This document shows positions 4,910-33,975 of a stretch of DNA of 36,637 nucleotides, in pieces; the first letter of the stretch is position 1, and every line of letters begins with the position of its first letter. Source of the stretch: an uncultured Prevotellaceae bacterium (GTDB lineage: Bacteria > Bacteroidota > Bacteroidia > Bacteroidales > Bacteroidaceae); assembly GCA_947176655.1 (NCBI GenBank), contig CAMWRK010000001.1, positions 1 to 36,637 on the forward strand, written 5' to 3'. The position numbers and the translations under genes are program-made. The notes beneath the pieces were generated by a model. That model was not told where the DNA came from. It searched no databases and saw only the letters and a program-made list of their open reading frames with translations.

Positions 4910-6337
4910 TTATCTGACCAGCAGACCGGAAGCTTCATACTTTTTGCCGGCCTTTACGATAACTATACGACCGTTTGCGATGAACTTGCCATCGGTCTGT
5001 ACATCAGCGGCGATAACGGCATCTATGCCATCAGCCACCTCCTTGACAATATCGGCTTCGCTGCGGGGACAAATCTGAAGCTGGTTGAAATATGTCACCA
5101 CACCGGTAATGCTATAGACCGCATCTTCCTCCAGTTCAGGCAGAGTCATGAAAGCGTTGTACGGAGTAATGACATCCTCTCCCTGATAGAACTTGCCTCC
5201 CTTGTATGTCACACTCTTCAGTGCAACCACGGCACCCTGACTGGCAGCAGAGAGGTCGGAGATGTTCTTCTCCAAAACAGGAGTCTCCTGACCGGGAGTA
5301 ACTGTCAGACCCTCGGTGTTGGCTTTCAGGTTCTTCAGTTCTGCGGCTCCGTTGTAGAGTGTCAATGTTGTAACAACAACACCGGAAAGTTTGTCGCCCA
5401 CATTAAAGCCATGGCCGTTGGAATATACCAAGATACCCTTGCCCGTACCGTCCGTAAAATATACATTGCTGGTTCCCCTGACACCTGTACATATCAGACC
5501 TTCGGTATCCATAGCGATACCAGTATCTGTCTTTGTCGCAGCCTCCAGAGCCTCGCTCAGAGTCATAATCTTGAGAATAGTGTATGTCTGCGAAACCACC
5601 ATGCTGGCCTTGCCGTCCAGAACTGCTATAGCCTTTATTGTCGTTGTCTCGGCAAGGCTGATAGGCTCCGTGTACTCGGCGCTTTCCTCCGTAGGTTCGC
5701 TACCGTCAAGCGTATAATATATCTTGCAATCCTCTCCAGCAGAGAGTTCTACTGTCTGAGTACCCACATAGCTGCCGCCCTCCAGGCTGAACACTGGAGA
5801 GTCCACAGTACCTTCCGGCAATGTACCATAGAAGTCAATTCTCTCCACTTCGACATATTGGTTGCTTGAACCTGATGTCGTGACATTGAATACCAGCCTA
5901 TAATATGCTCCTACGGAGGCGTTTACTTCAAACACCGTTTCATCGTCAGCCTTAACTTCACCGACTACATATTCCTCGGCATTATCAAAATCAGCATTAT
6001 CTGAAACATACAGCGTTGCACTGTTTACCGTCAGATTTATGCGATACGTCTTCAGAACTACCTTGTCCACAGAACCAATCATGGGGGTTAAGCTTGTACA
6101 TGCGCGGTCTTGGTCGGTCAGTTTCTTACCTCCGATACGATACAGTTGCTTGCCATCATAGGAATAATTGGTATTACCCTCTATTTTCCATTCAATTCCA
6201 TTGCACTTCATGATTCCGCTGCCGCTGTAATCCGTATTCTTACCGGCAACAGGTTCCATACTGTAAATCAACGTTGACTGAGCCATTGCTGTCAGACCGA
6301 CCAGCATCACTGCAAATGAGAGTAAAAGTTTCTTCAT
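4910..6337 (-). CDS. secreted multidomain surface protein with a chitobiase/beta-hexosaminidase-C-like (Fn3-like) module and a possible T9SS tail
   Basis: ORF 4910..6400. I placed the start at the internal MKKLLLSFAVMLVGLTAMAQ (cat at 6335-6337), which gives a canonical signal peptide. The segment SPVFSLEGGSYVGTQTVELSAGEDCKIYYTLDGSEPTEES is a typical CHB_HEX_C-like motif. The C-terminus (DGIDAVIAADVQTDGKFIANGRIVIVKAGKKYEASGLLVR) resembles short Prevotella-type sorting tails. Confidence 0.7.
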   Translation of the reverse strand: MKKLLLSFAVMLVGLTAMAQSTLIYSMEPVAGKNTDYSGSGIMKCNGIEWKIEGNTNYSYDGKQLYRIGGKKLTDQDRACTSLTPMIGSVDKVVLKTYRINLTVNSATLYVSDNADFDNAEEYVVGEVKADDETVFEVNASVGAYYRLVFNVTTSGSSNQYVEVERIDFYGTLPEGTVDSPVFSLEGGSYVGTQTVELSAGEDCKIYYTLDGSEPTEESAEYTEPISLAETTTIKAIAVLDGKASMVVSQTYTILKIMTLSEALEAATKTDTGIAMDTEGLICTGVRGTSNVYFTDGTGKGILVYSNGHGFNVGDKLSGVVVTTLTLYNGAAELKNLKANTEGLTVTPGQETPVLEKNISDLSAASQGAVVALKSVTYKGGKFYQGEDVITPYNAFMTLPELEEDAVYSITGVVTYFNQLQICPRSEADIVKEVADGIDAVIAADVQTDGKFIANGRIVIVKAGKKYEASGLLVR

Positions 6338-6428
6338 AAGCTTTATATATTTAAGTGTTAATATTAATTCAAGCCATCCGCACAGCAACAGGCACTTCAA
6401 TACGAATATTTCTCCCGTATTTTACGTG

Positions 6429-6520: not shown

Positions 6521-7693
6521 TCACGCCCGCCTCTTCTGCTGCAGAAAATCATCCAGACTGCAGCCCTCTATACATTCGAACCAGTAGCGTGCCGTTTTTA
6601 CTGCTCCGAACCCCACAATCTCGCAGTCGGCTACCGATGCCACCTTTCCGGAAAGAATCAGACGCTTCAGTTCCGCGACACGGTAGGCAGCAATATATTC
6701 GTGAACATTATTGTGCCCGCGGCTACGCAGGCACTGCAGGAGCAACTGACGGTTCAGCCCTGTCTCCGCACACAGTCTGTCGCGTGTAAAGGTACTGTTC
6801 ATCCATACCTCCTTATGCCCCAGCATCCAACTCTGCACACATACATACCGTTTGTGGTTCATCTCGTTGAAGTCAGCGCGCCGTTTGTCCTCAGACTGCG
6901 CTTCCTTGTTCCGGACATCATCTGCCACTGAATCCACAGCATCCGCCGACTCCAAAACGATATCAGGATGTGACACTTTTACTATCAATGTCTTCATGGA
7001 GTGGCATACCCAGAAAAAATTTACTATTGTGAACAGCAACATGTACGCACACAGCAACATCGGGGTATAGCGCAATGCGGTGTAGAGATACAATATCACC
7101 GACAGCACCAGAACAGCGGTGTAGGTTATCAGAGACATAGGGAGACTGGTTCTGGAAGCCAGACGGCGCGGCAGGAAAATGATATTCACCACGTAATACC
7201 CCCCCAGCAACAAAGCCATCACCCTCAGCATAAGATCTGCCGACAATATATTACTGAAAAACTCATCGGCAGAATACACCTTGGTAAGTTGCTCCGCCGG
7301 GAACATTGCCACGATATATACCCCTGCCAATACAAACACCGGACTGGCGTATTTCAACATGCGCCCCCACTGCAGGAAACCTGGCATGACTATTCCGAAA
7401 GAGTATATACTTTGCAGATATGCCCCCACGACAAGCATCAGCAACATATAGGGATTCAGTATGCCTGGCCTACCCGCGACAACCACATCCCCGAACATGG
7501 CCACAATGGCCGTTACAGCAGAAAATATTGCCAGTATCCATGCCAGGCTGAGGTACTGCACACGATGGCGCGCCAATATTCCCATGACACACAGACCCAC
7601 GAAATGCGCTGTCGCACAACAGGCAAATACTACGGTCACTATGGTCGCATCAATGCTCATTGCAGGCAAAAATATGTAAAAAATGTGGAACAA
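6521..7693 (-). CDS. polytopic membrane protein with C-terminal AraC-type HTH DNA-binding domain
   Basis: 390-aa ORF. The N-terminal ~250 aa consist of consecutive hydrophobic segments. The C-terminal ~100 aa (FTRDRLCAETGLNRQLLLQCLRSRGHNNVHEYIAAYRVAELKRLILSGKVASVADCEIVGFGAVKTARYWFECIEGCSLDDF) follow the AraC/XylS double-HTH pattern. The start could instead be the Met at 7660 (MSIDATIV...). Confidence 0.75.
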   Translation of the reverse strand: MFHIFYIFLPAMSIDATIVTVVFACCATAHFVGLCVMGILARHRVQYLSLAWILAIFSAVTAIVAMFGDVVVAGRPGILNPYMLLMLVVGAYLQSIYSFGIVMPGFLQWGRMLKYASPVFVLAGVYIVAMFPAEQLTKVYSADEFFSNILSADLMLRVMALLLGGYYVVNIIFLPRRLASRTSLPMSLITYTAVLVLSVILYLYTALRYTPMLLCAYMLLFTIVNFFWVCHSMKTLIVKVSHPDIVLESADAVDSVADDVRNKEAQSEDKRRADFNEMNHKRYVCVQSWMLGHKEVWMNSTFTRDRLCAETGLNRQLLLQCLRSRGHNNVHEYIAAYRVAELKRLILSGKVASVADCEIVGFGAVKTARYWFECIEGCSLDDFLQQKRRA

Positions 7694-7791: not shown

Positions 7792-8766
7792 TCAAGCGGC
7801 CACTGCATAATTTCCAGGTTTCCGAAACGTAATGGTATATGTGTGCTTGTTCTCCGGAGCCTCACTGATGTTCTCGCCTTTTACTATGATTGTCAGGACT
7901 GCGGTTCCTTTGTCGTACTCTGCAGTATATGTGGCAGCGCGACCTGTCATGTCAACACCGGTGAACAGAGCCGGATCATAAACCTCGTCCACAGTGCTGC
8001 CCATGGCAACTTTCCGCCCGTTGTATGTGATAGCCGTAGCCTCGCTGTGGTAGAGCATTTCCATGTCGTCGATGAACATATAGTCGTTCTTATTACCTTT
8101 TCCGGGCTTTGAACTTGTGGCTATGTATACCAAAGCATAATACGGTTTCTCATTAGTCTCTTCATTACCAAACGGAATGATGTACTCTGTCCATTTATCG
8201 TTGCTTTTGATATCGTCCTTGATGGCTTTGGATACCAACGTTGCGGTGATTTTACCTGTATTCACATAGGGATCCTGATAATACCCTTTCGTGGTTAAGA
8301 ATACGGAAACCTTGGCCCTGTTAGAGCCCCGGAACTTTAGCCAGACACGGACAGCATCGGGACGCCCGCTGAAACGCATGGCCTGATCCTCGCGAGTCTC
8401 ATTGATATAATTGTAATTGCCGCTGCCGTCGGATGGATTCATGGAAGACATATTCACGCAACCTGTAGTAAGATTACCCTGTGCGACAACAAAAAATACG
8501 TTGCGGGCATGTATTCTTGCCGAATACCGCCCTGACGTTCCCGGGCGCAACTCCCTGGAACTCTTCTCCAATTGTATTGCACCGGCCATACTCTTATAGC
8601 CACCTGTACCATCCATAAAAGAGCTCCATCTCACAGGCTCTTCCCCCCTTTTGCCACCGTATGCCACCGTCTCCCACACCTCAAAGTCGGAATTGGCAAC
8701 CTGATATTGTGCGGCAGCGGTCAATGTCATTCCCATGGCAAATGCCACAAATAACGCGTTCTTCAT
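7792..8766 (-). CDS. secreted PCMD-like domain protein (last gene of the lipoprotein operon)
   Basis: ORF 7792..8796. I placed the start at MKNALFVAFAMGMTLTAAAQ (cat at 8764-8766), a signal peptidase I-type signal rather than a lipobox. The mature N-terminus (YQVANSDFEVWE) and the segment KNDYMFIDDMEMLYH parallel the PCMD-like modules of the genes at 11303 and 13950. Confidence 0.75.
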   Translation of the reverse strand: MKNALFVAFAMGMTLTAAAQYQVANSDFEVWETVAYGGKRGEEPVRWSSFMDGTGGYKSMAGAIQLEKSSRELRPGTSGRYSARIHARNVFFVVAQGNLTTGCVNMSSMNPSDGSGNYNYINETREDQAMRFSGRPDAVRVWLKFRGSNRAKVSVFLTTKGYYQDPYVNTGKITATLVSKAIKDDIKSNDKWTEYIIPFGNEETNEKPYYALVYIATSSKPGKGNKNDYMFIDDMEMLYHSEATAITYNGRKVAMGSTVDEVYDPALFTGVDMTGRAATYTAEYDKGTAVLTIIVKGENISEAPENKHTYTITFRKPGNYAVAA

Positions 8767-8809
8767 AAAGCCGGCTAATGGAACTCTACGTCTCAATTAT
8801 ACCATTCGG

Positions 8810-9475
8810 TCAGTTGTAATAATACCGTATATTATATATCTTGCCTGCCTCCTGATCCGATACCGTCACCTCTGTCGTCTGGTGCACGACTCCATCTGTA
8901 TTTGCGGTCATCAGATTATAGGCAAAACCGTTGTCCGCGCTGAAATAGGCAGTCTGCCCATCCTCCAACGATACGGTTCTGTCAGCACTATGGACTGTAA
9001 ACGTATACTCCGGAAACAACAAAGCAAAGCGTTCCGGAAGTGTCAGGCACACACCGTAATTGATCATTGGCACCTTATAGCGGCAGTAGGCCGTGTTATC
9101 TTCTTTTATCTGAACCACAGTATCTCCGAAGAGACATGCCTCACCGAGTCCGCCGTTTGCCGTAGCCCATGAAGACTGATTGTCCGTATAAGCACGAAGC
9201 GTGTACCTTCCTACCGGCAGGTCTATCACCTGAGGAATCTGACCGCTCTGATACTGTCTGACCACCGAAGCCTCGCTATCCAGAATCATCACGGCAAATT
9301 GGACTTCAGAGTCCGAAGAACGTACAACCACCGGCTGTGTGGCATCCAGCAGTGTCAGGCATAATCTGCCACAAGACGGTTTGTCTGCTGTCATGTCCCC
9401 GCTGCTGCAAGAAGACATGAGTAAGAGCACGGCAAATGCATACCCCAAAAGACATGTAAGAAGACTATTTCGCAT
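8810..9475 (-). CDS. DUF4493-like lipoprotein (paralogue 5; FimA-like N-terminus)
   Basis: ORF 8810..9523. I placed the start at MRNSLLTCLLGYAFAVLLLMSSC (cat at 9473-9475), which gives a lipobox. It shares the paralogue motifs GRLCLTLL...VVVRS, PVGRYTLRAYT and NYGVCLTL. The start overlaps the upstream stop by 11 nt. Confidence 0.7.
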   Translation of the reverse strand: MRNSLLTCLLGYAFAVLLLMSSCSSGDMTADKPSCGRLCLTLLDATQPVVVRSSDSEVQFAVMILDSEASVVRQYQSGQIPQVIDLPVGRYTLRAYTDNQSSWATANGGLGEACLFGDTVVQIKEDNTAYCRYKVPMINYGVCLTLPERFALLFPEYTFTVHSADRTVSLEDGQTAYFSADNGFAYNLMTANTDGVVHQTTEVTVSDQEAGKIYNIRYYYN

Positions 9476-11306
9476 ATTTGTACGAGAGTTTGTGTATGAA
9501 GCTTTTGGTTTGGCCGGAACCATAGCTGTTATTGGCTTTTACACTGGTAGCATCGGCATTGAGAGTGAATGTGACATGGTCGTCATACTTGTTGTACACA
9601 CTACTGAAGAATTTGGTGCCGGAATCCTTGGAAAAATAGGTATAATCGCCCACCGACAGAGTAAGCGTGGTACCAACAGTGGCACCATTAGTGGCAACGG
9701 TATAAGGACAGTCCATCCGTGTTCCTGCCGGTATGGCAAAGCGGTCGGACGTAATGTACTGCGGTTGTGATGTGGTGTTTTGCCCCAGGCGTACGCACGA
9801 CATGCCACTGTCCGAGACATCCCAATTGACAGTACCATGACTGTTCCATCCTGCATCTCTGGTTGGCGGAGCATATTCGGCGGGAAGACCGGTTATGCGC
9901 ACATCCTTCTGCGTCATGACTGTTATGTCTGCAAATGTTGCAGTGCATGACAGTGTGTACTCCGTCAGCGATGGAGCCAGATTTGTCACGTCAGGATATG
10001 AGATACGACTACCGTTCATGGTTCCGGAAAGTGTTGTCTCGTTGACGGTTGTCGTGACAGATGGCGCATACGTCGGATTGTTCAGAAGAGACGGAGCAAT
10101 TCCAATGTTTACGGATGGGGCATACAATGTATAGGCATCACAATTGTTCGCGCCATCCACATCGCCGGACAAGTATTTTGAATATGAAGTGTATCCATCC
10201 GCCACAATATCGACCGTAGGCTTTGTCACGTTGAAATCGCGTGCACCGGTTTCGCTCTCAATGCCGTCCCTGATTACATAGAAGACAGCCCGATACTGAC
10301 CGGAAGGAAGATACGGATATTCCATGCCCTGTTCATCGTGTCCCGATGCTAACGCCCCGTCTCCCTGTACACTGCGCATGACAGCATTTGCAGAGTTCTC
10401 CACGACTGCCTTCCATTCAAATCCCGGATACCCGTTGCCGAAATCGATATCTGTTCCGGCAAGCCGGCCTTCCGCGTCGAATGCATGATGGACCTGTACA
10501 CCGGGAAGCGGCAACCATGACAACGGGATTGTCTGCTGGAGAGTCACTTCCTCAATCTCTACAGCAGAAATCTCTATCGCCATAAGGCTCTGCGGATCGG
10601 GCAATGACAGCGTAACAATGGCATGTTCGGCAGGGGCAAACGATGACGGGAAATCTGTTTGGGAAAGATCCAGCATAGCGCTGACATGTCTGCCGTCCTC
10701 TTTAAGAACGCCAGTAAATTCCAGTGAGACACTGCTGCCGGAACGGAAATATACGCTTTGGTACGATTTCTTGTCTGAAACAGTTGCATAATACCCATCC
10801 ACATGCACACGGACAGCATAACTGTCATACAAACGCGAGAAACGTTCCTGCTCCTGCACATCACGTCCAAAGCGTACAGAGACCAATGAGTTGGCAACGC
10901 TGCATGCCACGTCTACCTGCGTGTTCTGCCCATGTTCTACACTGACATTATCCGCCGTGCCGAGATAGTATGGCTCATCTATGGCTATAAGCGGATTGTC
11001 ACCGCATGAAACAGACACTTCATAAAGCCCTGTCGCAAGCGGTATGGCGGTATCTGTCAGCTTGTCCCGATAACATATCATTCCGTCCTGATTTCTCACG
11101 ACAAGTGAAAACCTGTCCAATGACGGTGCACCGATTTCCACCGGTGTACTGCGTGTCTCAATTTGTGATGACACATTGTTCAGTCTGACATTGAGTGTTC
11201 CCTCTTCCCGTTGAGGTAAATCAGCCTCCGTCTGACATGCTGTAAGGATCAATGCAAATAGCAGTGCAGGGATGTTATTTATGATGTTTGCTTTTTTTAT
11301 GATCAT
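9465..11306 (-). CDS. DUF4493-like lipoprotein with ~370-aa C-terminal extension (paralogue 4)
   Basis: 613-aa ORF with lipobox LILTAC followed by QTEADL. Paralogue motifs: GTLNVRLNNVSSQIETRS, TGLYEVSVSCGD, EPYYLGTA and QVDVACSVANSLVSVRF. ATGA overlap with the upstream gene at 11303-11306. Confidence 0.75.
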   Translation of the reverse strand: MIIKKANIINNIPALLFALILTACQTEADLPQREEGTLNVRLNNVSSQIETRSTPVEIGAPSLDRFSLVVRNQDGMICYRDKLTDTAIPLATGLYEVSVSCGDNPLIAIDEPYYLGTADNVSVEHGQNTQVDVACSVANSLVSVRFGRDVQEQERFSRLYDSYAVRVHVDGYYATVSDKKSYQSVYFRSGSSVSLEFTGVLKEDGRHVSAMLDLSQTDFPSSFAPAEHAIVTLSLPDPQSLMAIEISAVEIEEVTLQQTIPLSWLPLPGVQVHHAFDAEGRLAGTDIDFGNGYPGFEWKAVVENSANAVMRSVQGDGALASGHDEQGMEYPYLPSGQYRAVFYVIRDGIESETGARDFNVTKPTVDIVADGYTSYSKYLSGDVDGANNCDAYTLYAPSVNIGIAPSLLNNPTYAPSVTTTVNETTLSGTMNGSRISYPDVTNLAPSLTEYTLSCTATFADITVMTQKDVRITGLPAEYAPPTRDAGWNSHGTVNWDVSDSGMSCVRLGQNTTSQPQYITSDRFAIPAGTRMDCPYTVATNGATVGTTLTLSVGDYTYFSKDSGTKFFSSVYNKYDDHVTFTLNADATSVKANNSYGSGQTKSFIHKLSYKYAK

Positions 11307-12994
11307 TCGTAAAGTAGTTTCATATTGTCAAGTTGCAGCAACGACTTATCGCCACCGAGAAAATAATCACCGTATTTGCTGCTGGAGGCAACGATTATAA
11401 TATATTTCGGAGTGCGGTTTCTATGCCTGTATTCTATCTGTATGGTGTGTGTCGTCCATTGGGTTACGTCACAATCCTGCGTAAGCTGGCCATAAGCTAT
11501 CACATTGTCACTCTGCGGGTCGAACAGTTTAAGTTCCGACGGACGGGTACGTATTACATAAGGGTAAACTGTTCCTTCGAATTCTTCCTCGTCCGCATCA
11601 CCGATGAGAGCCACATACACCTGGCACATGTCAGGCTTGCCGCGCAATCCCTCGTATACCTCACGACTGATGTAACGTGCATAGGACTCCTCCCATTTTG
11701 TGCCGCCCTTGTTTATTATTGACGAGTAATAACGGAAATCAAATTGCAGATGTGTCGGAAAACTGTTGAAAGGCCTGCCAAAGCCTAAAATGCCGTTTGT
11801 TCCGTCCGTCTTGAGATATTTACCGGTAAAGATGCTGCCGGCAGCAAACTTGATGACAATGTATTTGGACTGCAGATTGGCAAATGTACGCCCGTCTTCT
11901 GTAACACCGGTAGTATTGCTTGCACCTACAGTGGTTGCACCACGGTTACCGGTATCCCAGTAAGCGGTCTGTCCGTCTGCCCATGGCCTGTACAATATCT
12001 GATTGCCCGCACCTTCCTGACTCCAAAAATCAAAACTGCCGTTTTCTATCTGTATTGCAGGCGCAGTGGTAAAACACTTGACCGCAGTCGCTGTCTCTCC
12101 CGAAACAACCTGCAGTTCATATTCCGTACCCGGAAGCAAGCCATCCACCTCCGCACTGTATTCTGTCTGGGATGTGACAACCTTTTCCGCAGGCAATACA
12201 CACCACTCCGCCTCACCAGTCTGACGATACTGAACCTTGGGCGTAGTGCCGTTCTGTTTTTCACCACTTACGAATGCCCTGACCGAGTGGGCAAATACGG
12301 ATGCTGTCGTGGACAGGTGGCTGTCTGCATTGTATACATACACATTCCACGTCTCCAACTCCGTCTTCCAGGCACATCTCACAGAGAAAGTCCTTCTCAT
12401 GCTGAAATCCAGCGTCTGCCCCGTAGGATCGGGAGTGACCGTACCGTGAATGCCTCCGAGCACCATCTTATTGACCTTTACAGCCGAAAGATTCTGCGAG
12501 GGTGACACATAGACCACAACATTATTGTTGACGGTATCTATGACAGCTGTCCCCACCTGGTTCTCTACCTCAACCTCACGCACGACGACCTGATGTACAC
12601 GTATCTTCCATTCATACTTCTGGTACGTTACAAGTTCAAAGACTACCTCCTGCGAGAAGTCCAATGTAGGCATGAGACCTTGGCTGGGCTTAAAGGAAAT
12701 GTCCGTACCCTTAACCCTGACAGTGGCGTCATTACTGACATCCATACTTCTGATGTACAGTTTGCTGACATCTACCCTGTCATCGACATAAATGTCCACC
12801 GTCCGCTTTTCCTTGTCTATCAAAGCCACAGGTTCGCCCTGTCCATTAGGAGAGCACTGACCCTCAATGAGTATATCGGTTATCTCACTCTTTACCAAAG
12901 GCAAAGGCAGGTCATCCTTTATGGTGCAGGAATGCAGCAACAGTATTGCCAGCAGAGAATGGTATATTATGAATGTGTATATGCTGCGTTTCAT
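11303..12994 (-). CDS. lipoprotein with a distinct N-terminal region, an FN3-like module and a PCMD-like C-terminal domain
   Basis: 563-aa ORF with lipobox LLHSC followed by TIKDD (a K-D-D export-signal-like motif). FN3-like segment: PKVQYRQTGEAEWCVLP...LLPGTEYELQV. PCMD-like segment begins AIQIENGSFDFWSQ and ends KYGDYFLGGDKSLLQLDNMKLLYE. ATGA overlap with the upstream gene at 12991-12994. Confidence 0.75.
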   Translation of the reverse strand: MKRSIYTFIIYHSLLAILLLHSCTIKDDLPLPLVKSEITDILIEGQCSPNGQGEPVALIDKEKRTVDIYVDDRVDVSKLYIRSMDVSNDATVRVKGTDISFKPSQGLMPTLDFSQEVVFELVTYQKYEWKIRVHQVVVREVEVENQVGTAVIDTVNNNVVVYVSPSQNLSAVKVNKMVLGGIHGTVTPDPTGQTLDFSMRRTFSVRCAWKTELETWNVYVYNADSHLSTTASVFAHSVRAFVSGEKQNGTTPKVQYRQTGEAEWCVLPAEKVVTSQTEYSAEVDGLLPGTEYELQVVSGETATAVKCFTTAPAIQIENGSFDFWSQEGAGNQILYRPWADGQTAYWDTGNRGATTVGASNTTGVTEDGRTFANLQSKYIVIKFAAGSIFTGKYLKTDGTNGILGFGRPFNSFPTHLQFDFRYYSSIINKGGTKWEESYARYISREVYEGLRGKPDMCQVYVALIGDADEEEFEGTVYPYVIRTRPSELKLFDPQSDNVIAYGQLTQDCDVTQWTTHTIQIEYRHRNRTPKYIIIVASSSKYGDYFLGGDKSLLQLDNMKLLYE

Positions 12995-13950
12995 AAATAG
13001 AATGTCAGTCCGAGATTGACACTGAATATATTGAACCTGAAGTTGGCTCCGCCACTATTGCTTTTTCCCATCTCATATTCCGTAGCCCCGGGATGCAGGT
13101 TCTTGTATTTGGTCCACTGGTAATTTATACCCATAACACCGATAGAGGTCTCTACTGCCAGAAAGTCTGTAACAAACACGCAAATGCCGGGAGAAACACC
13201 CAGCTGCACTGCATGAGCTGTTACATACGAGCCGTCCAATGTATTGATACCATTGCTCTCGTCCCTTATTCCGGTACTGTTCTTACCCTGCGCATTGGCA
13301 TAAGAGAATCGTGCTTCGGCAAAGCATCCAAAGATCTTGCTTCCGAACAATGGAGTGTAATATCGCATGAAAACAGCAGCCTCATGTTTATGCTCCAGAT
13401 CGTACAGATCCTTGAGGTTTATGTTAAGATCCTCTCCGAGACTCAGCTCCAGACTCCCCAGGTCGAAATATTGCCTGCTGTAGTTATAGCGGGCTCCGAC
13501 AGCCAGATTATCGGCAAAGAAATATCCCACTGCAGGGGAAACGCTAAGAATGTGAGCCTTCAGGTCAAGGTTCTTGAGCACTACAAAGTTGATGTTCTCA
13601 TTATCCCACTCACGATAGTTCGCAGAAAGTCCGGCCATCCACGTTCCCTTCGGAATAAACACAGCCTTGAGTTCACTACGGTCAACACGCTGTATACGGC
13701 GCGTCGATTTGGGACGCCGTGGTTTCTGCTTCAACATCCGTATCAAGTCCTGTACCGATATTGAGTCATGTATCGACATCAGTTTCTGCACCGATATTGA
13801 ATCATGCTGCACTATCGAATCCCGAACCGCCACAGAGTCCTGTATCGCCACAGAATCCTGTATATCTATTGAATCCTGTGCTGACACTGCCACATATCCG
13901 AAGATAAATAGCAGTGTCAGTAAAGAAGATTTGATGATGTTTATTTTCAT
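12991..13950 (-). CDS. small outer-membrane beta-barrel (porin-family/OMP_b-brl-like) protein with N-terminal hexapeptide repeats
   Basis: 319-aa ORF with a signal peptide (...GYVAVSA|QD). After a repeat region and a basic linker (KQKPRRPKSTRRIQR), the rest shows alternating hydrophobic beta-strand patterns (AVGARYNYS, AAVFMRYYT, AEARFSYA, ANFRFNIFSVNLGLTFYL) with an aromatic-rich C-terminal strand. Confidence 0.75.
   Translation of the reverse strand: MKINIIKSSLLTLLFIFGYVAVSAQDSIDIQDSVAIQDSVAVRDSIVQHDSISVQKLMSIHDSISVQDLIRMLKQKPRRPKSTRRIQRVDRSELKAVFIPKGTWMAGLSANYREWDNENINFVVLKNLDLKAHILSVSPAVGYFFADNLAVGARYNYSRQYFDLGSLELSLGEDLNINLKDLYDLEHKHEAAVFMRYYTPLFGSKIFGCFAEARFSYANAQGKNSTGIRDESNGINTLDGSYVTAHAVQLGVSPGICVFVTDFLAVETSIGVMGINYQWTKYKNLHPGATEYEMGKSNSGGANFRFNIFSVNLGLTFYL
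13735..13878 (-). repeat. about 8 degenerate tandem 18-bp (hexapeptide) repeats inside the barrel gene
   Basis: The protein reads QDSIDI QDSVAI QDSVAV RDSIVQ HDSISV QKLMSI HDSISV QDLIRM. The DNA shows the matching 18-nt periodicity (e.g. gagtcctgtatcgccaca / gaatcctgtatatctatt / gaatcctgtgctgacact on the plus strand). Confidence 0.8.
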
Positions 13951-15743
13951 TATTGCAGAGTTGGTTCACCGTATTCGAATGAGAAGTCATCTACATACAT
14001 GACATTGCTGTCTGAACCGTAGAAGTAGTCACCCCACTTGTTGGCACTACATACAATAAGCATGTATGCGGGCTTTTTGTTCGTGACATGATACCTCAGT
14101 GGTATGGTAAACTCTTCCCACTGACCATTGGTACCGGTATTCCTCGTCAATTCTCCGTAAGCTATTACGCGCGGGTCTTCCTCCCAGTTGATGACGGTAC
14201 TCTTCTTGTACTCGCCACTTTCCGCATTGCCACCGACCTTCAACTGCTCTGTCAGCAATGCGCAGAAAATCTGGCAGGCATCCATCTCGCCCTTGGCCGG
14301 AGCACCTGCACCAGAAGGCTGGTTTCCACGATTGATTGCGCCCGGAGTAAACGCGAAATAACCCTTCAAAGCACTGGGACGTGAAACAAACGGGACACCC
14401 CAATCCAGTTTGGCACCGCTTGTGCCTATCAAGTCTACGCATTTTCCAGTAAACAGGCTGGCAGCGGCAAGTTTGATGACAACATATTTTGTAGCCAACT
14501 TGGCCGAATATGTACCGCTGTGAACCATTTCCGTACTGCGTGTAGTGACATTGTACGATTCGCCCATAGTTGTTGCGCCAGGATTACTTGAATCCCAATA
14601 AGTGCCACCCTCAGCATTGGGATACCACGAATTACCGCCCTTGTACCAATTCTCGAAGCTGGCATTCTCAATAGCGGTCTGGCTTTCGGTGACGAACTCC
14701 ATCTCGTTGCTGTTCACTCTGGTCTCTCCGTTATTGTAGCTCATACGGTATACGTAGGTCTTGGCCGGAGTCAGTCCGCTAAGATGATAGGTGTATCCAT
14801 CAGCACCATCGGATACAAGCTGAGAATAAGGAATCTCAGTCCATCCCGGCGCTGTCTTCAGACGGTACTGCATTGTAAGTTTTGTAGCGTCAAACTCAGA
14901 GGTCTTGGCTGTTACCGAACCAGTAAGGTCAGCAAACGTGCTCCAAGCATTGGCCGTCATAACCTGTAAAGACGTAGAACTCTTTCTGGGAACCTCTATG
15001 TTGAACGTGTATGACTGCGTAGCGTCGTCCACAGACACGGAAACACCGCCCATATTGCCGGCCTCGGCAATCTTGTAGTTGACGATATAGTGGTCGCGCG
15101 CCTTCACACCTGTCACGTCTCTTGACATGGAATGCTCCTCTCCGGCCATATTCGTAACAGCCAGCAGGAAGTTGAGGTTGCCGACAGGGAAATAGGCCGA
15201 ACCGACTGTCTGGTAACCGAAACGACGCATTGCAACGCCCTCTACAGCCGAACTTACGATACAGGATGCTTCGCGGAAATATTTGCGGAAATTCTCGTCA
15301 AACTTGACACTCACCTTGACATTGGCCTGCGTCAGAGTAAGGGTAGCCTTGGTCAGTGTCTTGGCCGCTATCGTCACTCTTGTGAAGCCGTCATAGTACG
15401 GTGCACCAAAACCTGAGCCAGAACCGTCCCAACCTGCGGAACTGCCGTGGATGGTGTACGAACCCTGCGGAAGAACGATATTGCCCTTGAACGCATCGTC
15501 GTTGCTGACATCTTCCGTTGACATCACCACCTTGCCACTGTTGTTGTCCGTAATCTGCACACTTATCTTTTTGGGATTGTAGCCCTCGGGCTTGTCTGCA
15601 CGCGTGTTGGTGGACGTAAGGGTATTGAGTTCCAGACGCAGATAGCCTGCGCTGTTCATCATCTCCAGTTCTTGCCCGTTATCGCATGATGCAACAAGCA
15701 TGGAGACGGCACACATAATCAGTATATATATTCTTGTTTTCAT
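13950..15743 (-). CDS. DUF4493-like + FN3-like + PCMD-like fusion lipoprotein (paralogue 3)
   Basis: 597-aa ORF with lipobox LVASC followed by DNGQELE. Paralogue motifs: GYLRLELNTLTSTNTRA, QGSYTIHGSSAG, APYYDGFT and ATLTLTQANVKVSVKF. FN3-like segment: LTMQYRLKTAPGWTEIP...LTPAKTYVYRM. PCMD-like segment begins AIENASFENWYK and ends KWGDYFYGSDSNVMYVDDFSFEYG. TAATG overlap with the barrel gene at 13950. Confidence 0.8.
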   Translation of the reverse strand: MKTRIYILIMCAVSMLVASCDNGQELEMMNSAGYLRLELNTLTSTNTRADKPEGYNPKKISVQITDNNSGKVVMSTEDVSNDDAFKGNIVLPQGSYTIHGSSAGWDGSGSGFGAPYYDGFTRVTIAAKTLTKATLTLTQANVKVSVKFDENFRKYFREASCIVSSAVEGVAMRRFGYQTVGSAYFPVGNLNFLLAVTNMAGEEHSMSRDVTGVKARDHYIVNYKIAEAGNMGGVSVSVDDATQSYTFNIEVPRKSSTSLQVMTANAWSTFADLTGSVTAKTSEFDATKLTMQYRLKTAPGWTEIPYSQLVSDGADGYTYHLSGLTPAKTYVYRMSYNNGETRVNSNEMEFVTESQTAIENASFENWYKGGNSWYPNAEGGTYWDSSNPGATTMGESYNVTTRSTEMVHSGTYSAKLATKYVVIKLAAASLFTGKCVDLIGTSGAKLDWGVPFVSRPSALKGYFAFTPGAINRGNQPSGAGAPAKGEMDACQIFCALLTEQLKVGGNAESGEYKKSTVINWEEDPRVIAYGELTRNTGTNGQWEEFTIPLRYHVTNKKPAYMLIVCSANKWGDYFYGSDSNVMYVDDFSFEYGEPTLQ

Positions 15744-15769
15744 AGTCTTGTCTTTTTATGTATGTTAGG

Positions 15770-17038
15770 TTAATTTACCGTAAGCGTCAGTGAACCTTCC
15801 TTCTTACCACCCTTCATGTCTGTTATCACCAAGTCAAATGTATGTGCTCCGGGCAATACTTGCAGCAGACTGAAGAAATTGCCTATCGGGAAGGTATATT
15901 CCTTGTCGCCCTGAGCAGGAACTGTCAATGTCTGGCCAAGTTCGGTAAACAGATTTACCATTTGTGTATTGCCGACAACCTCTGCACCGTTTACGAAATC
16001 CACGTGATACCCGTCCTCAAGGTCTGCCAATGAAGAGAGCATATCCTCACTGGTTGAGGACATCTTGACTACGATGCTCTTGATTCCGTTCTCGCACTTT
16101 ATGTACGTATTGCCCAATGACGGATCCGTGCCTGGTGCCAGTACCATGTTCTGGGGAAGGTTCAGGAGAATCTTGGAATCATCGTTGCCAGGCTCATCAC
16201 CACCTTGGTTGCCACCCTCCTCAAATCCGGGCTTGTCAACGACAATGACTGTTACTTCCTCGTTCGTTTCGGTAAATGTCACATTGGCATTTATGCTGAT
16301 GGCGTTTATCTTGCCGTCCGTAGATTCTGTCGGAGAAAAATTGAGGGTCAGAGCATCACCTCCGCCGAAGTTCTCTCTGTCATCATCGTAACTTTCATCA
16401 GCCTGGTCTTTTGTCAGCAGGCTTCTGGACGTTATTCTGCTGCCGTCTGCTGTCATACCACGGAAATTCACCGTAAGTTCTTTTGCTCCCTCCTCACCAA
16501 AATACCAGTATACGGCATTCGTAAACTCTGTGTTAGTGAAAGACAGGACTGTCTCGCTGCCGTCGCTTATGGTGATTTCCCATGATTGGAAGACATCGCG
16601 GAACTCCTGACTGTAATTCACCGTAATCAGACTGTTCTGCATTTTGCATACAATATCGACATTTGATGTCACGCCTTTCAGGATTTCCATAGTTTCCGTT
16701 CCACTGTAATACGGGTCGGACATTCTCTTCTGTATTATGCCTGGGGTATGTGATTGTACGACATAATTGCCCACAGCCATCACCACCTGTTCGGGAATCT
16801 CCGATATCGCATTGTAGGACAGAACCTGTTTTCCTTCCGCATCGTAGACATCGAGAGGAAAGTCCGTAACCTGAGAAACGGCACGCGTTTCCGTCTTCTC
16901 CGGAGTTTTTACCCGGACATTGAATACGGCTGTTCCCTCACCCTGAGCTGAGCGGTCTATATCTATGGTCTCAGTGACACACGATGTAAAAAGGACAGTG
17001 CAAAGAACACCTATCTTGAATTTATTCAGGAATTTCAT
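15770..17038 (-). CDS. DUF4493-like lipoprotein with C-terminal extension (paralogue 2)
   Basis: 422-aa ORF with lipobox LFTSC followed by VTETIDID. Paralogue motifs: GTAVFNVRVKTPEKTETRA, VGNYVVQSHTPG, DPYYSGTE and NVDIVCKMQNSLITVNY. It has an acidic Gly-rich linker (GFEEGGNQGGDEPGNDD). Confidence 0.8.
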   Translation of the reverse strand: MKFLNKFKIGVLCTVLFTSCVTETIDIDRSAQGEGTAVFNVRVKTPEKTETRAVSQVTDFPLDVYDAEGKQVLSYNAISEIPEQVVMAVGNYVVQSHTPGIIQKRMSDPYYSGTETMEILKGVTSNVDIVCKMQNSLITVNYSQEFRDVFQSWEITISDGSETVLSFTNTEFTNAVYWYFGEEGAKELTVNFRGMTADGSRITSRSLLTKDQADESYDDDRENFGGGDALTLNFSPTESTDGKINAISINANVTFTETNEEVTVIVVDKPGFEEGGNQGGDEPGNDDSKILLNLPQNMVLAPGTDPSLGNTYIKCENGIKSIVVKMSSTSEDMLSSLADLEDGYHVDFVNGAEVVGNTQMVNLFTELGQTLTVPAQGDKEYTFPIGNFFSLLQVLPGAHTFDLVITDMKGGKKEGSLTLTVN

Positions 17039-17074
17039 AAGTATAATTATTTCTAATAATGTATAGAAAGCTTG

Positions 17075-17914
17075 TTAGAGCCATGTCACGGGAATCTCGT
17101 ATGTTATCTTCTTGTCGTTAGTGCTTTCATCTATGGTGATTCCTAACTGCAGACCACCATCGGTGGTCGGAGTATAGCTTGGCCTGATTGTAAGCTTATG
17201 CGCCTTGTTGCGCTCCAGTCTGAATGTTCCTGTTGCAGAACCGTTTGCCACTGTGCCGCCATTGCCCTGTGTGAGATAGTCTTCCTTGGCTTTCAGACTG
17301 ATTGTATAGTTGATGTTCTCGCCATTCTTGTCCAAGGCTATATACCATGGCTCGACATCTGTCTTGCTCCAGGCAATGGTGCTTGAACCCAACATCTTGG
17401 TTCCGCCAAACGTTACGTTATAGTCGTCAAAATATGTTGCCATTGTCTGGTCAAAGTCAACAGACACCTTTCCGCATGTGGGCGAACAGTTCACCACAAC
17501 GCTCTTTTCCTCCTTTGCCTTGAGGGTGACCACCGTCGAACCGCTCATGAAGAACTCGTCACGGCTTGCATCATGCTCTGCACCGTAGGTGGCAGTAATC
17601 TTGTAGCTGCCGATGTCAAATGTCTTCGGGAGATAGGAACCCAGCTCATAAGCCTTGCATTCCAGCAACACATTGTCGTTGGAGGCATTTATTATCTGAA
17701 CCGTATATTCACTTGTGAGCATATAATTGCTCTCATTCAGCGAACGCGTACCTTCACTAAAAGAAGGATCGGGATTAAGATTTATACTCAGCGTCCCTTT
17801 TCCCAACTCATTTGGCGGGGAAACCAAATTCAGATTCTTATCATTCGCGCTACAAGAAGCAAGTGCCAATGATGCAAGAATACCAAAACGAAAAAAAATG
17901 TTTCTTCTTTCCAT
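17075..17914 (-). CDS. DUF4493-like lipoprotein (paralogue 1; first gene of the operon)
   Basis: 279-aa ORF with lipobox LALASC. Paralogue motifs: GTLSINLNPDPSFSEGTRS, IGSYKITATYG, DEFFMSGS and SVVVNCSPTCGKVSVDF. Confidence 0.8.
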   Translation of the reverse strand: MERRNIFFRFGILASLALASCSANDKNLNLVSPPNELGKGTLSINLNPDPSFSEGTRSLNESNYMLTSEYTVQIINASNDNVLLECKAYELGSYLPKTFDIGSYKITATYGAEHDASRDEFFMSGSTVVTLKAKEEKSVVVNCSPTCGKVSVDFDQTMATYFDDYNVTFGGTKMLGSSTIAWSKTDVEPWYIALDKNGENINYTISLKAKEDYLTQGNGGTVANGSATGTFRLERNKAHKLTIRPSYTPTTDGGLQLGITIDESTNDKKITYEIPVTWL

Positions 17915-18006: not shown

Positions 18007-18014
18007 CAAAATTA
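18007..18014 (-). promoter_or_regulatory. candidate -7 promoter box (TAATTTTG) for the DUF4493/PCMD operon
   Basis: The minus strand reads GGTAATTTTGCATGCAG, a perfect TAnnTTTG about 93 nt upstream of the ATG at 17914. Only an imperfect -33 element is present (TTTC, 23-nt spacer). Confidence 0.35.
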
Positions 18015-18125
18015 CCTTATTTATATTATACGCGCGCGAAATATTGGTAAAACCTTGCATTTTACCGAATCTTCCTCAAAAATACACGGTTTCATCGCAA
18101 TGACAGCAAGTGCAAAAAACATTTT

Positions 18126-18845
18126 TCACTTCATCGCCGCCTCGGCATCCTTGCTGAGACGTTCCACCGAGGCACGGATGATGACCACATCCTCCAGCGG
18201 TCTGTCGTTGGTATCGGTGGGGCATTTCTGTATCTTTCCGACAATATCCAGTCCCTCTATGACCTCGCCGAAAACAGTGTACGCACCGTCCAAGTGCGGT
18301 GTGCCCCCATACATCTGATAGTCGCTTATCATGAACCTGTCAAGTTCAATTCCTCTTTCAGAAAGGTAAGATATAGCCTTCTTCAAATCGGCAGGAGCCA
18401 TCTTGCGCCCCCATACTATATAGAACTGCGAACCGCTGCTGCGGAAGTCGGGATTGACATCATCGCCCTCGCGTGCCGCCGCCACAGCGCCGCGCACATG
18501 GTACAGGTCTGGAAACACTATCTCTGCCGGCAGAGTGTAGTCCTGTCCGCCCTCGCCGAGAAGCGAATCCTTGTTGGCATTGCGGCTGTCGGGGTCACCG
18601 CCCTGAATCACGAAGCTCTCTATGACTCGGTGAAAGAGAAGTCCGTCGTAATATCCCGATGCGGCAAGACGCAGGAAGTTGTCCCTGTGCACCGGTGTCA
18701 TGTCGGACAGGGCTATGCGGATGTCGCCAAGCGAGGTCTCAAGATGTACCACACTGCGTTTCTCCTTACGAACTGCAAGAGCGGATACCGGCATCATGAA
18801 CAACAAGGCCAGCAGGCCGGCAAGAAAAGTTGATAGGCGTGTCAT
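18126..18845 (-). CDS. secreted cyclophilin-type peptidyl-prolyl cis-trans isomerase
   Basis: 239-aa ORF with a signal peptide (LLALLFMMPVSALA). Cyclophilin motifs: YYDGLLFHRVIESFVIQGGDP, GSQFYIVWG and LDGAYTVFGEVIEGLDIV. Confidence 0.9.
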   Translation of the reverse strand: MTRLSTFLAGLLALLFMMPVSALAVRKEKRSVVHLETSLGDIRIALSDMTPVHRDNFLRLAASGYYDGLLFHRVIESFVIQGGDPDSRNANKDSLLGEGGQDYTLPAEIVFPDLYHVRGAVAAAREGDDVNPDFRSSGSQFYIVWGRKMAPADLKKAISYLSERGIELDRFMISDYQMYGGTPHLDGAYTVFGEVIEGLDIVGKIQKCPTDTNDRPLEDVVIIRASVERLSKDAEAAMK

Positions 18846-19018: not shown

Positions 19019-20659
19019 TTAATCTACCAGAACATCATTGCCCCGGATTATTCGATGATGCAATCCATCGCATCCGACAAATGCATCTCTGGCAATATGT
19101 TTCACGCCATGCGGAATAATTACAGTAGAAAGTTTTCTGCATCCGGCAAAAGCGTACCGGCCAATGTCACATATCCCATCCGGAAGGACAAGAACTTCAG
19201 GAGTGTTGACAAAAGCATACGAACCTATGGCAGTCACTTCTGGCAGGAAACGCGTTGTGGCACAGCCGAGAACCAGTCTGCCAGTCCTTCTCTCAACGAT
19301 TGAGTTTGAACCGTCAGATTTGTAGACCGTATTGTCTTTGGCAACTGTTATGGCCACGCATCTCTCACTGTAACGGAATGCCGTGGAATCAATGCCAGCC
19401 ACCGAAGCTGGGATGTCAATGGATGTAATGCCGCTTCCCTCAAATGCAAAAGCGTCTATATACCTGACTCCGTCCGGAATGACCGTACCGTTACATCCTG
19501 CCAACAATGCGCCGTTCGATGTCCGGATGATGGCGTTGCAATTGTTACGGGAATCATAGTATCTATTCTTCGGATCTACAACAATAGAGTGCAACGATAC
19601 ACAACCGGAAAACATACCGTTCCCCAGTTCCTTGACTCCATCCGGAATATAAATGCTGTCCAATGACGTGCAGTCTCCGAACTGCCCTCCCTTTTCAAAG
19701 CATGTCAGTGTGCATGGCAGAATGACACGCTTTAGCGAATGACATCTCCAGAAGGCATCAGCACTGACAGTAGCCACACCCTCCGGTATCGTTATGCTAT
19801 GCAGGTTGATGCAATACTGAAAGGCACTCTCGCCAATGACATCCACGCCGGAGGGAATTACTGTTGTGCAGCAACCTCTGACGAGACAACCTCCCTCTAT
19901 TATCGCATTGCAGTTTTCTCTTGAGTCGTAAACCCCATTCCTTTCGTCCACAGTTATTGATGTAACATTTGGACAATAGTAGAATGCTTCCCCGTCAACC
20001 ATTTCCACAGTAGACGAAATATGTATCTTTGTCAGATCGGGACACCTATAGAAAGCGTACTTGCAAATGTTTTTTATTCCTTCGGGAATGATAACAGAAT
20101 CAACAAGACAACCGTCGTAGGCCGCTCCGCGTATACATTCGACGGAAGAAGGAATTTTTGTTCCCTTGCATCCATAGACAAGGCCATTGCTTCTTGTTAG
20201 GATTATAGCGTTGCACCTGTCTCTGCTGTCAAATATCCTGTTGCCGTCATCTACGTAAATCGACGACAAAGCGATGCAGTAAGAAAAGACATATTCGCCT
20301 ATAACCCTCACACTGGCAGGAATATGTATCGCCTCCATGTCCGTACAAGCACAGAAAGCACTGTCGCATATCTCTTCTATACCGTTGCTTATGTCGACTT
20401 GCCTTATGCTACTGCACCGGGCAAACGCAGAATTCCCAATACCTCTTACATAATATGTCTTACCATTGTGGCGAATCTTGGCTGGAATATTCAGGACAGC
20501 GTCCTTGAATGGATACCCATCATTCCATGCCACAATATTGACGGAATCCTTGCAGATAACCTTGTACTGAAAACCTGATTCGACAAAAGTGGAATCAGCC
20601 TTTGCACACAGTATCGGAAATAATACCGCAAGGCAAAATATGTACAGCCTTTTCAACAT
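19019..20659 (-). CDS. BspA-like leucine-rich-repeat (LRR_5-type) surface protein
   Basis: 546-aa ORF with a signal peptide. It has many repeats of the pattern IP.GV..IG..AF..C..L.SI.IP and recurring NCNAII / YDSR(D/E/N) motifs, characteristic of BspA-type LRR proteins. Confidence 0.85.
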   Translation of the reverse strand: MLKRLYIFCLAVLFPILCAKADSTFVESGFQYKVICKDSVNIVAWNDGYPFKDAVLNIPAKIRHNGKTYYVRGIGNSAFARCSSIRQVDISNGIEEICDSAFCACTDMEAIHIPASVRVIGEYVFSYCIALSSIYVDDGNRIFDSRDRCNAIILTRSNGLVYGCKGTKIPSSVECIRGAAYDGCLVDSVIIPEGIKNICKYAFYRCPDLTKIHISSTVEMVDGEAFYYCPNVTSITVDERNGVYDSRENCNAIIEGGCLVRGCCTTVIPSGVDVIGESAFQYCINLHSITIPEGVATVSADAFWRCHSLKRVILPCTLTCFEKGGQFGDCTSLDSIYIPDGVKELGNGMFSGCVSLHSIVVDPKNRYYDSRNNCNAIIRTSNGALLAGCNGTVIPDGVRYIDAFAFEGSGITSIDIPASVAGIDSTAFRYSERCVAITVAKDNTVYKSDGSNSIVERRTGRLVLGCATTRFLPEVTAIGSYAFVNTPEVLVLPDGICDIGRYAFAGCRKLSTVIIPHGVKHIARDAFVGCDGLHHRIIRGNDVLVD

Positions 20660-33895: not shown

Positions 33896-33975
33896 ATAAA
33901 TGAAAAACGAACAAAAACTGACATCACACATAGATTTATAACTTTAACTGATTAACCATCATAAACAAAAAAGCA

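Follow-up and report, generated by a model that had tools for sequence, protein, structure and literature searches.

The window analysed here is a stretch of 36,637 nt from an uncultured Prevotellaceae bacterium (contig CAMWRK010000001.1). Its minus strand carries a 10-kb cluster of eight consecutive genes, g1 to g8 (17914-7792), whose products most likely form a surface fibre that binds sugars and is akin to the type V pili of gut Bacteroidales. In our view the products rather probably form a surface fimbria or adhesin complex of a divergent, type V pilus-like (FimA/Mfa-type) kind. This reading builds on gene content, co-conservation, lipoboxes and a conserved Arg/Lys (R/K) column, all of which are seen directly, and on a predicted fold together with its match to solved pilins. 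An earlier note on this DNA had described the cluster as a candidate undescribed assembly system. That was overstated, since the DUF4493 module, which is found in five of the eight products, shares its predicted fold and the layout of its maturation motif with type V (FimA/Mfa) pilins, and the system is better described as a variant or divergent branch of a pilus type that is known. On the evidence presented here, what is new is a widespread system that resembles type V pili, is an orphan by sequence and has non-canonical accessory genes.

The five proteins g1, g2, g3, g6 and g7 are matched by the Pfam family DUF4493 (PF14900) with E-values of 1e-15 to 1e-45 and 58-157 bits at a cut-off of 27 (E 1.1e-42, 1.2e-45, 9e-42, 1.3e-29 and 1.2e-15, in that order). 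The modules are mutually homologous with hhalign probabilities of 98.9-99.8%. The earlier note had deduced one shared module from recurrent landmarks in the translations, and these landmarks turn out to be real alignment columns, of which G102, Y104 and G125 are invariant among the paralogues. It had also stated that no function is assigned to DUF4493 clusters. In line with this, a search of one literature library found no publication mentioning DUF4493, and the operon is not among the structures of an in-silico survey of the surface of P. distasonis, a species that carries it.

For g1 an AlphaFold2 (AF2) model was built on 55 orthologues (pLDDT 79.5). It predicts two beta-sandwich domains of approximately 7-8 strands each, preceded by a first strand (residues 39-48) and a floppy loop of low confidence and followed by a disordered C-terminal tail. 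In a Foldseek search of this model against the PDB the top 16 matches are all Bacteroidales structures of the FimA/Mfa superfamily (probability 1.00, E 3e-7 to 2e-5), which in view of their modest TM-scores assigns the model to a fold class and is not a proof of homology. Among these top matches are 4h40, 3up6, 4rdb (PG0181), 3gf8 (DUF1812/Mfa2-type), 3pay, 4gpv, 4k4k, 5cag and 4qdg. The entry 5cag is a solved relative of the DUF5119 pilin which is encoded in a canonical fimbrial cluster of the same window. Further down the list 3r4r (BDI_3522, deposited as 'fimbrial assembly protein'), 4eps and Mfa1 (5nf3) are found, and SusE/F-like proteins do not occur in it.

The most informative feature of the locus is absent from the earlier note. 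All five DUF4493 groups contain a single Arg/Lys column 28-36 residues past the lipobox Cys, which is conserved in 90-100% of the orthologues (Table 1). One Arg is invariant and common to all five paralogues in the alignment, and the consensus around the conserved basic residue is T-[RK]-[AS]. In the AF2 model of g1 the residue Arg57 falls into the predicted beta1-beta2 loop, after strand 39-48. The protease sites of FimA (Cys19, site Arg46-Ala47) and Mfa1 (Cys20, site Arg49-Ala50) are likewise located in the beta1-beta2 loop after the lipidated anchor strand (PMC13655056). Judged from the sequences, the Cys...Arg layout of the five paralogues appears to be the same as this maturation layout, and they may be cleaved at the same place.

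Most orthologues have acidic residues after the lipobox Cys, as in the export signal of Bacteroidales surface lipoproteins (PMC12632263). Type V pilins of Bacteroides are cut by surface clostripain, and clostripains also shed surface lipoproteins (PMC12632263). The window encodes a lipoprotein of the clostripain family (Peptidase_C11) 4 kb from the operon, another feature on which the earlier note is silent. It is predicted to be surface exposed because acidic residues follow its lipobox Cys (MTSC-GDELPYPDE), and it is plausibly the maturation or shedding protease which acts on the pilin-like proteins of the operon.

The operon itself is as the earlier note had described it. All eight open reading frames were found at the coordinates listed in Table 1, and the junctions between them are, in order, +36, +26, -1 (TAATG), -4 (ATGA), -4 (ATGA), -11 and +13 or +43 nt, depending on the start of g8. 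The 11-nt overlap of g6 and g7 and the overall layout are reproduced by independent gene calls on contigs of a 92%-identical relative. Lipoboxes are present in six products (g1, g2, g3, g5, g6 and g7), and within each orthologue group this Cys is conserved at 100%. In g4 and g8 the signal peptide is of the ordinary type, with no lipobox. As also claimed, a Pfam search of g1 to g8 reveals no characterised enzyme, ATPase, TonB-dependent transporter or SusD domain, with the caveat that solved relatives of the PCMD domain, discussed below, bear the label 'putative glycoside hydrolase'. A SusC/SusD pair is found neither in the operon nor in its co-conserved flanks. None of the modules belongs to an enzyme or Sus family that has been characterised. 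The view of the locus as a surface structure rather than a metabolic pathway or a Sus-like locus is supported.

By using the barrel gene g4 as a single-copy anchor, 41 genome loci were retrieved. The carriers are Parabacteroides, Bacteroides, Phocaeicola, Mediterranea and Caecibacteroides as well as metagenome-assembled genomes (MAGs) labelled Prevotellaceae, Muribaculaceae and Bacteroidales. Cultured carriers include NM39_I3-like strains of P. distasonis, Mediterranea massiliensis, Caecibacteroides pullorum and Bacteroides caecigallinarum. Approximately 40 Bacteroidales genomes, distant ones included, show the order g1-g2-g3-barrel-g5(-g6-g7), which extends through g7 in approximately 30 of the 41 loci. 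Chance is far from explaining the arrangement, since the same gene order recurs in approximately 40 independent genomes. In the closest genome locus (L001) the operon ends after g5, and the minimal core is therefore g1-g2-g3-barrel-g5. Distant loci comprise three DUF4493 genes, the third with PCMD, followed by two tandem barrels and a PCMD lipoprotein. In the flanks of the 41 loci no co-conserved protease, recombinase, usher or regulator could be identified apart from a divergent AraC-type regulator in 11 of them. The downstream genes g8 and g9 and an upstream peptidyl-prolyl isomerase gene (PPIase, cyclophilin) accompany the operon only in its nearest relatives. One complete Bacteroidales-type operon (L027, CAVJQR010000006.1) is located in a MAG labelled Agathobaculum sp., a Firmicute, which is most likely a binning error.

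Upstream of g1 the Bacteroides -7 consensus TAnnTTTG is matched at 18007-18014 (TAATTTTG) and at 18077-18084 (TATTTTTG); these are motif matches only. The same motif occurs just upstream of g9 (7667-7674), the PPIase gene, the C11 gene (22004-22011) and the DUF3575 gene of the fimbrial cluster, and at none of the junctions inside g1 to g8. The cluster is a co-conserved, probably single-transcript operon of putatively surface-exported lipoproteins and one barrel. Scans for promoters and terminators of the E. coli type were uninformative for the locus, and Rfam and tRNA scans of the window gave no matches. A hairpin behind g8 (7784-7752) was rejected as an intrinsic terminator, as it folds no better than shuffled sequence (z -0.89). 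The sole candidate for a phase-variable inverton is a 13-nt AT-rich inverted repeat (17894-17906 / 18114-18126, 92% complementary), which brackets the whole intergenic region upstream of g1. One of its arms lies inside the g1 coding sequence, and it was discarded as probably due to chance.

The DUF4493 proteins differ in what follows the module. Only g1, the first gene of the operon, encodes a paralogue which ends directly after the pilin fold. Its lipobox Cys is Cys21, its anchor strand comprises residues 39-48, and its C-terminal tail I-x-[IV]-P-x-x-W is conserved, amphipathic and disordered in the AF2 model of the monomer. P275 and W278 are invariant in the 55 closer orthologues, and P275 is retained in at least 90% of the set of 30 orthologues. 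We take g1 as the candidate stalk subunit and its tail as the putative donor strand. Three paralogues carry extra C-terminal domains. An extension of approximately 157 aa in g2 has weak Big_9/Big_13 matches and may be Ig-like. In g3 the module is followed by a PCMD domain (PF13201), which by sequence makes g3 a candidate tip-adhesin-like pilin with a putative C-terminal glycan-binding domain. The C-terminal region of g6 comprises approximately 350 aa and, with an orthologue set that was not cleaned, aligns to PCMD at an hhalign probability of 97% (E 5e-11); this domain is probably PCMD-related. Tip pilins of type V are known to carry C-terminal ligand-binding domains (PMC12632263), and g2, g3 and g6 match this description, the binding itself being putative. 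The short protein g7 covers positions 3-196 of the 226 profile positions, and the last approximately 30, which correspond to the C-terminal tail region, are missing. Some accessory type V pilins are described to be devoid of donor strands (PMC13655056), and by analogy g7 may be an accessory pilin without a donor-strand candidate.

In the mechanism which we propose the five DUF4493 proteins would be made as lipoproteins and flipped to the surface, the first beta-strand being the anchor strand that ties them to the lipid. A surface protease with specificity for Arg/Lys, plausibly the C11 lipoprotein, would cut T-[RK]-[AS] in the beta1-beta2 loop. The stalk would consist of g1, with the tail acting as donor strand, while g2, g3, g6 and g7 would serve as accessory or tip subunits, g3 and g6 presenting their PCMD-type, probably glycan-binding, domains at the distal end. 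The barrel g4 and an uncleaved g5 might form an outer-membrane base or partner module, which may stand in for the missing lipidated anchor pilin. In this scheme the exposure of the proteins at the surface, their cleavage and polymerisation, the binding of glycans and the part played by the barrel are inferred.

The locus shares much with the type V pili of P. gingivalis (FimA-E, Mfa1-5) and with the FimA/Mfa-like pili of Bacteroides and Parabacteroides. Lipoprotein precursors, a two-domain beta-sandwich fold, which is predicted here, and an Arg/Lys in the beta1-beta2 loop are found alike, and the spacing of 28-36 residues after the Cys compares to about 27-29 in FimA and Mfa1. Five pilin-like genes per operon resemble the operons fimA-E and mfa1-5 (PMC13655056). 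Restriction to Bacteroidales, subunits with extra C-terminal, putatively ligand-binding domains and an Arg-specific surface protease family in the genome are further similarities. In contrast to the known operons, one stalk-like subunit faces four tip- or accessory-like ones, PCMD would be the adhesin module, and a conserved barrel without a Pfam model as well as a non-pilin PCMD lipoprotein are embedded in the middle of the operon.

Several observations weigh against this assignment. The TM-scores of the g1 matches are low (0.28-0.43), and other tandem beta-sandwich proteins, such as Gram-positive pilins, follow at a Foldseek E-value that is only about 100-fold worse. In Pfam DUF4493 has no sequence homology to P_gingi_FimA, Mfa_like_1/2, Mfa2, DUF5119 or Fimbrillin_C. 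Neither phmmer nor the DUF4493 profile matched any pilin among the PDB sequences. Alignments by hhalign of DUF4493 with the Mfa_like_1 and DUF5119 proteins of the window, and of deep profiles of DUF4493 (127 sequences) and DUF5119 (61 sequences), reach probabilities of 1-7%. Two traces are all that points to a link at the sequence level: a faint resemblance of the C-terminal tails (probability 2.9%) and, in a permissive Pfam scan of the 55 g1 orthologues, sub-threshold Fimbrillin_C matches in 3 of them. With the phmmer, profile, hhalign, deep-profile and permissive Pfam searches all negative, a sequence-level link between DUF4493 and pilins was rejected. In type V pili assembly is terminated by an anchor pilin which retains its lipid and has no protease site (PMC13655056), and none of the five DUF4493 groups lacks the R/K site, so that no canonical anchor pilin is present. 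Canonical type V operons contain neither PCMD lipoproteins nor the g4 barrel family. The C11 gene lies outside the operon and is not co-conserved with it in the flanks of the 41 loci. The donor-strand role of the g1 tail is putative, and an Arg/Lys after the lipobox would also be selected for by simple shedding through fragipain-like proteases.

The last point leads to the main alternative, shedding without polymerisation, which we consider possible although unlikely. The proteins would be surface glycan-binding lipoproteins similar to lectins of the surface glycan-binding protein (SGBP) type, the Arg/Lys would serve only for their release by clostripain to the medium or to outer-membrane vesicles, no filament would be formed, and the barrel would act as a receptor or as a partner in the membrane. 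The missing anchor pilin and the lack of sequence homology to pilins fit this picture, as do the resemblance of four of the five pilin-like proteins to tips instead of stalk subunits and the putative relation of PCMD to carbohydrates. However, the combination of a two-domain pilin fold and an R/K placed precisely in the beta1-beta2 loop, behind the anchor strand, is an architecture specific for strand exchange. Moreover, g1 has no ligand-binding domain and is nevertheless the best conserved first gene, with a conserved, disordered and amphipathic tail, and the fact that five paralogues are strictly conserved together in one order points to a hetero-oligomeric structure. The processing of Bacteroides surface lipoproteins by the C11 proteases fragipain and doripain offers a close parallel in its export signal, the basic site near the lipid anchor and a C11 gene nearby, but the known substrates are released toxins and assorted secretome proteins and not pilin-fold paralogues of a fixed operon. 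The SusE/F-like glycan-binding lipoproteins of polysaccharide utilisation loci are also surface lipoproteins of tandem beta-sandwiches with putative carbohydrate-binding ends. In contrast to them the locus contains no SusC/D or regulator, and the Foldseek matches are pilins and not SusE/F.

In the fimbrial reading the barrel g4 may have a place at the base. Its OMP_b-brl match is weak (E 0.012), and the AF2 model predicts a barrel of approximately 10 strands (residues 104-318, approximately 215 aa) with Foldseek matches to the generic small barrels OmpA, OmpW, OprG and Pla, which agrees with the small barrel recognised by the earlier note. The protein consists of a signal peptide, a disordered hexapeptide-repeat linker, a conserved basic pre-barrel segment (R88, D90, R91) and the barrel with a C-terminal beta-signal TFYL. 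The linker is encoded by 18-bp tandem repeats (13746-13863, minus strand) for DS[IV]xxQ-like hexapeptides and is variable among the homologues, both in its length and in its sequence; in total these proteins have ~240 to 570 aa. There is no Pfam model for the family, which comprises 1182 clusters at 50% identity (E<=1e-3). In the window g4 is translationally coupled to g3 and g5. The gap between the barrel and g5 is at most 21 nt in 36 of 39 loci, the junction of g3 and the barrel being more variable. Tandem paralogous barrels occur in loci of the Bacteroidales/Muribaculaceae type (L030-L038, L046, L047), which retain the flanking DUF4493/PCMD genes; the duplication hints at a hetero-oligomeric or two-barrel base.

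That g4 is a DUF3575 barrel (PF12099) was rejected, since Pfam gives no match and BLASTP against the DUF3575 protein of the window finds nothing. The Mfa-like fimbrial clusters with DUF3575 barrels are nevertheless comparable, because there too a small outer-membrane barrel gene stands beside genes for lipoproteins of the type V pilin fold, and the function of the barrel is, as far as we found, undefined in both systems. Unlike the DUF3575 protein, g4 shows no DUF3575 similarity and no OmpA-like domain, is encoded in the middle of its operon instead of first, and is paired with a PCMD lipoprotein.

The partner of g4, the lipoprotein g5, has its Cys23 in a conserved motif C-[AT]-I-E-N-D-I-P-Y-P, behind which come two tandem domains of approximately 100 aa (internal duplication, probability 98.7%), then an FN3-like domain and finally PCMD. 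At the pilin position there is no conserved R/K, and the single R/K-rich column (position 64, 85%, cleaned set) is off the pilin spacing. As the pilin position has no conserved Arg/Lys, g5 is predicted to stay lipid-anchored. A cryptic pilin at the N-terminus of g5 was considered and dismissed: hhalign probabilities of 96-98% against the DUF4493 of g3 came from orthologue groups contaminated by mis-binned g3/g5 proteins, and with clean sets the probability is 0.3%, so that the two are unrelated. That g4 and g5 form the outer-membrane base or a partner module of the structure is speculation. In its definite form, in which g4 and an uncleaved g5 would be the integral outer-membrane base of a type V-like fibre, either replacing the lipidated anchor pilin or serving as a dedicated surface-export/assembly factor for the pilin lipoproteins, we consider the idea doubtful.

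Still less credence can be given to a dedicated outer-membrane export/assembly machine, in which g4 with g5 would act as an operon-specific translocon or insertase (Slam-like) or as an assembly nucleator, and which corresponds to the 'undescribed assembly system' mentioned at the outset. The barrel is indeed single-copy, central in the operon, coupled to g3 and g5 and the most conserved gene; its family is large and unannotated, and distant loci hold two tandem barrels. In addition, the machinery for flipping lipoproteins to the surface in Bacteroidales has not been identified according to PMC12632263. Yet a barrel of approximately 10 strands, similar to OmpA, OmpW, OprG and Pla, is too narrow for the translocation of folded proteins and unlike ushers or Slam/DUF560. 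Instead of a periplasmic chaperone-like or POTRA/TPR domain g4 has just a disordered repeat linker, and type V pili assemble in vitro from pilin and protease alone (recombinant Mfa1 and RgpB). Chaperone-usher pili and Slam systems resemble the locus in that an operon unites one outer-membrane barrel with a number of paralogous subunits for the surface, the former also in their donor-strand logic. Here, however, the subunits are lipoproteins, and the barrel is small in comparison to the 24 strands of an usher or the 14 strands plus TPR domain of Slam. In g1 to g8 Pfam matches neither a chaperone nor an usher (~800 aa, 24-strand) nor DUF560.

The earlier note had recognised PCMD-like modules in three proteins. 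Pfam finds the domain in g3 (141 bits, E 5e-41) and g5 (121 bits, E 6e-35) at a cut-off of 28, and the C-terminus of g6 is a probable addition. For g8 there is no Pfam match; BLASTP against the PCMD of g3 aligns residues 23-249, the full PCMD domain, at E 7e-9, and approximately 85 aa form a C-terminal domain behind it. This gene is a lineage-specific addition, absent from all 41 genome loci and present in 92%-identical relatives only. The PCMD profile reaches only four PDB entries (4jrl, 4het, 3s30 and 3hbz), uncharacterised structural-genomics deposits labelled 'putative glycoside hydrolase'. In the PCMD alignment two Asp are invariant and no invariant Glu column exists. The literature mentions PCMD only in expression tables. 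Glycan binding, as in lectins, is accordingly a putative function of PCMD, and an enzymatic activity is conceivable. A carbohydrate-processing locus, with PCMD domains as glycoside hydrolases and DUF4493 as carrier or spacer domains, could draw on the labels of these sole solved relatives and on the two invariant Asp, but it is very improbable, since the labels are structural-genomics guesses, an invariant Glu is missing, most of the coding capacity is pilin-like, and the locus has no SusC/SusD, no characterised carbohydrate-active enzyme (CAZyme) domain, no sugar-sensing hybrid two-component system and no extracytoplasmic function (ECF) sigma/anti-sigma pair.

The positions of the genes discussed and of the putative promoter region are summarized in Table 1. 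A canonical type V fimbrial-type cluster, also not mentioned in the earlier note, is located at 31608-35070 on the plus strand of the same window, and the genome segment thus carries both a classical small-barrel-plus-pilin cluster and a DUF4493 cluster. The neighbourhood of the operon is rich in cell-surface functions, with the LRR_5 and CHB_HEX_C_1/Fn3_assoc genes as flanks. Directly downstream of g8 the gene g9 has a promoter-like motif of its own. The soluble AraC-type regulator, which in other genomes stands divergent upstream of the operon (11 loci), is a different gene; both may be regulators of the locus. Between genes, at 21497-21591, partly palindromic units with a period of 22 nt (GGTCTT..GAAGACCA-like) make up an array that forms long imperfect hairpins and has no match in Rfam. 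The array sits in a stretch of approximately 0.9 kb without convincing open reading frames, beside a low-GC segment.

Table 1. Genes and other features of the window; for the DUF4493 proteins the last column gives the lipobox Cys, the conserved Arg, their spacing and the share of orthologues with R/K at that position.
Feature	Position	Strand	Description	Cys / Arg
g1	17075..17914	-	279 aa; minimal DUF4493 lipoprotein; candidate stalk (major) pilin	Cys21 / Arg57; spacing 36; R/K 100% of 30
g2	15770..17038	-	422 aa; DUF4493 lipoprotein with C-terminal extension; candidate accessory or tip-like pilin	Cys20 / Arg52; spacing 32; R/K 96% of 27
g3	13950..15743	-	597 aa; DUF4493, FN3-like and PCMD lipoprotein; candidate tip-adhesin-like pilin	Cys20 / Arg48; spacing 28; R/K 96% in cleaned set of 27
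g4	12991..13950	-	319 aa; small outer-membrane beta-barrel	
g5	11303..12994	-	563 aa; non-pilin lipoprotein with PCMD	
g6	9465..11306	-	613 aa; DUF4493 lipoprotein; candidate second tip-adhesin-like pilin	Cys24 / Arg52; spacing 28; R/K 92% of 24
g7	8810..9475	-	221 aa from ATG at 9475; short DUF4493 lipoprotein; candidate accessory pilin	Cys23 / Arg52; spacing 29; R/K 95% of 19
g8	7792..8796 (or start 8766)	-	334 or 324 aa; secreted divergent PCMD-like protein	
Putative promoter region 5' of g1	18007..18084	-	two matches to the Bacteroides -7 consensus TAnnTTTG	
g9	6521-7693	-	multi-pass membrane protein with C-terminal AraC-type HTH_18	
CHB_HEX_C_1/Fn3_assoc gene	4910-6400	-	protein with CHB_HEX_C_1/Fn3_assoc domains (Pfam)	
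LRR_5 gene	19019-20659	-	BspA-type leucine-rich-repeat protein (LRR_5, E 3e-74)	
C11 gene	22017..23243	+	clostripain-family (Peptidase_C11) lipoprotein, Pfam E 4e-38; candidate trans-acting maturation protease	
DUF3575 gene	31608-32876	+	DUF3575 and OmpA-like barrel protein (Pfam)	
DUF5119 gene	32825-33895	+	DUF5119 pilin-family lipoprotein, related to PDB 5cag	
Mfa_like_1 gene	33976-35070	+	Mfa_like_1 fimbrillin (Pfam)	

Among the adhesive fibres known from Bacteroidales, a dominant order of the gut microbiota, type V pili are the main ones. The DUF4493 family has not previously been linked to pili, and surveys based on Fim/Mfa sequence homology would miss it entirely. If DUF4493 operons indeed encode type V-like fibres, the adhesin repertoire of the Bacteroidales would gain a widespread family, whose barrel alone accounts for more than 1,000 clusters at 50% identity, and DUF4493, PCMD and the unnamed barrel family would gain their first functional context. 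The candidate glycan-binding tips formed by PCMD would be relevant to attachment to mucus, diet or other bacteria. The missing anchor pilin and the obligatory pair of barrel and lipoprotein would offer a tractable handle on two questions, namely the way in which the outer membrane holds type V fibres and the function of the small barrels beside fimbrial genes. Should g4 and g5 indeed form the base, the outer-membrane component that is missing from the biogenesis of type V pili and surface lipoproteins would be found in the small barrels near Bacteroidales fimbrial genes (the g4 family, DUF3575).

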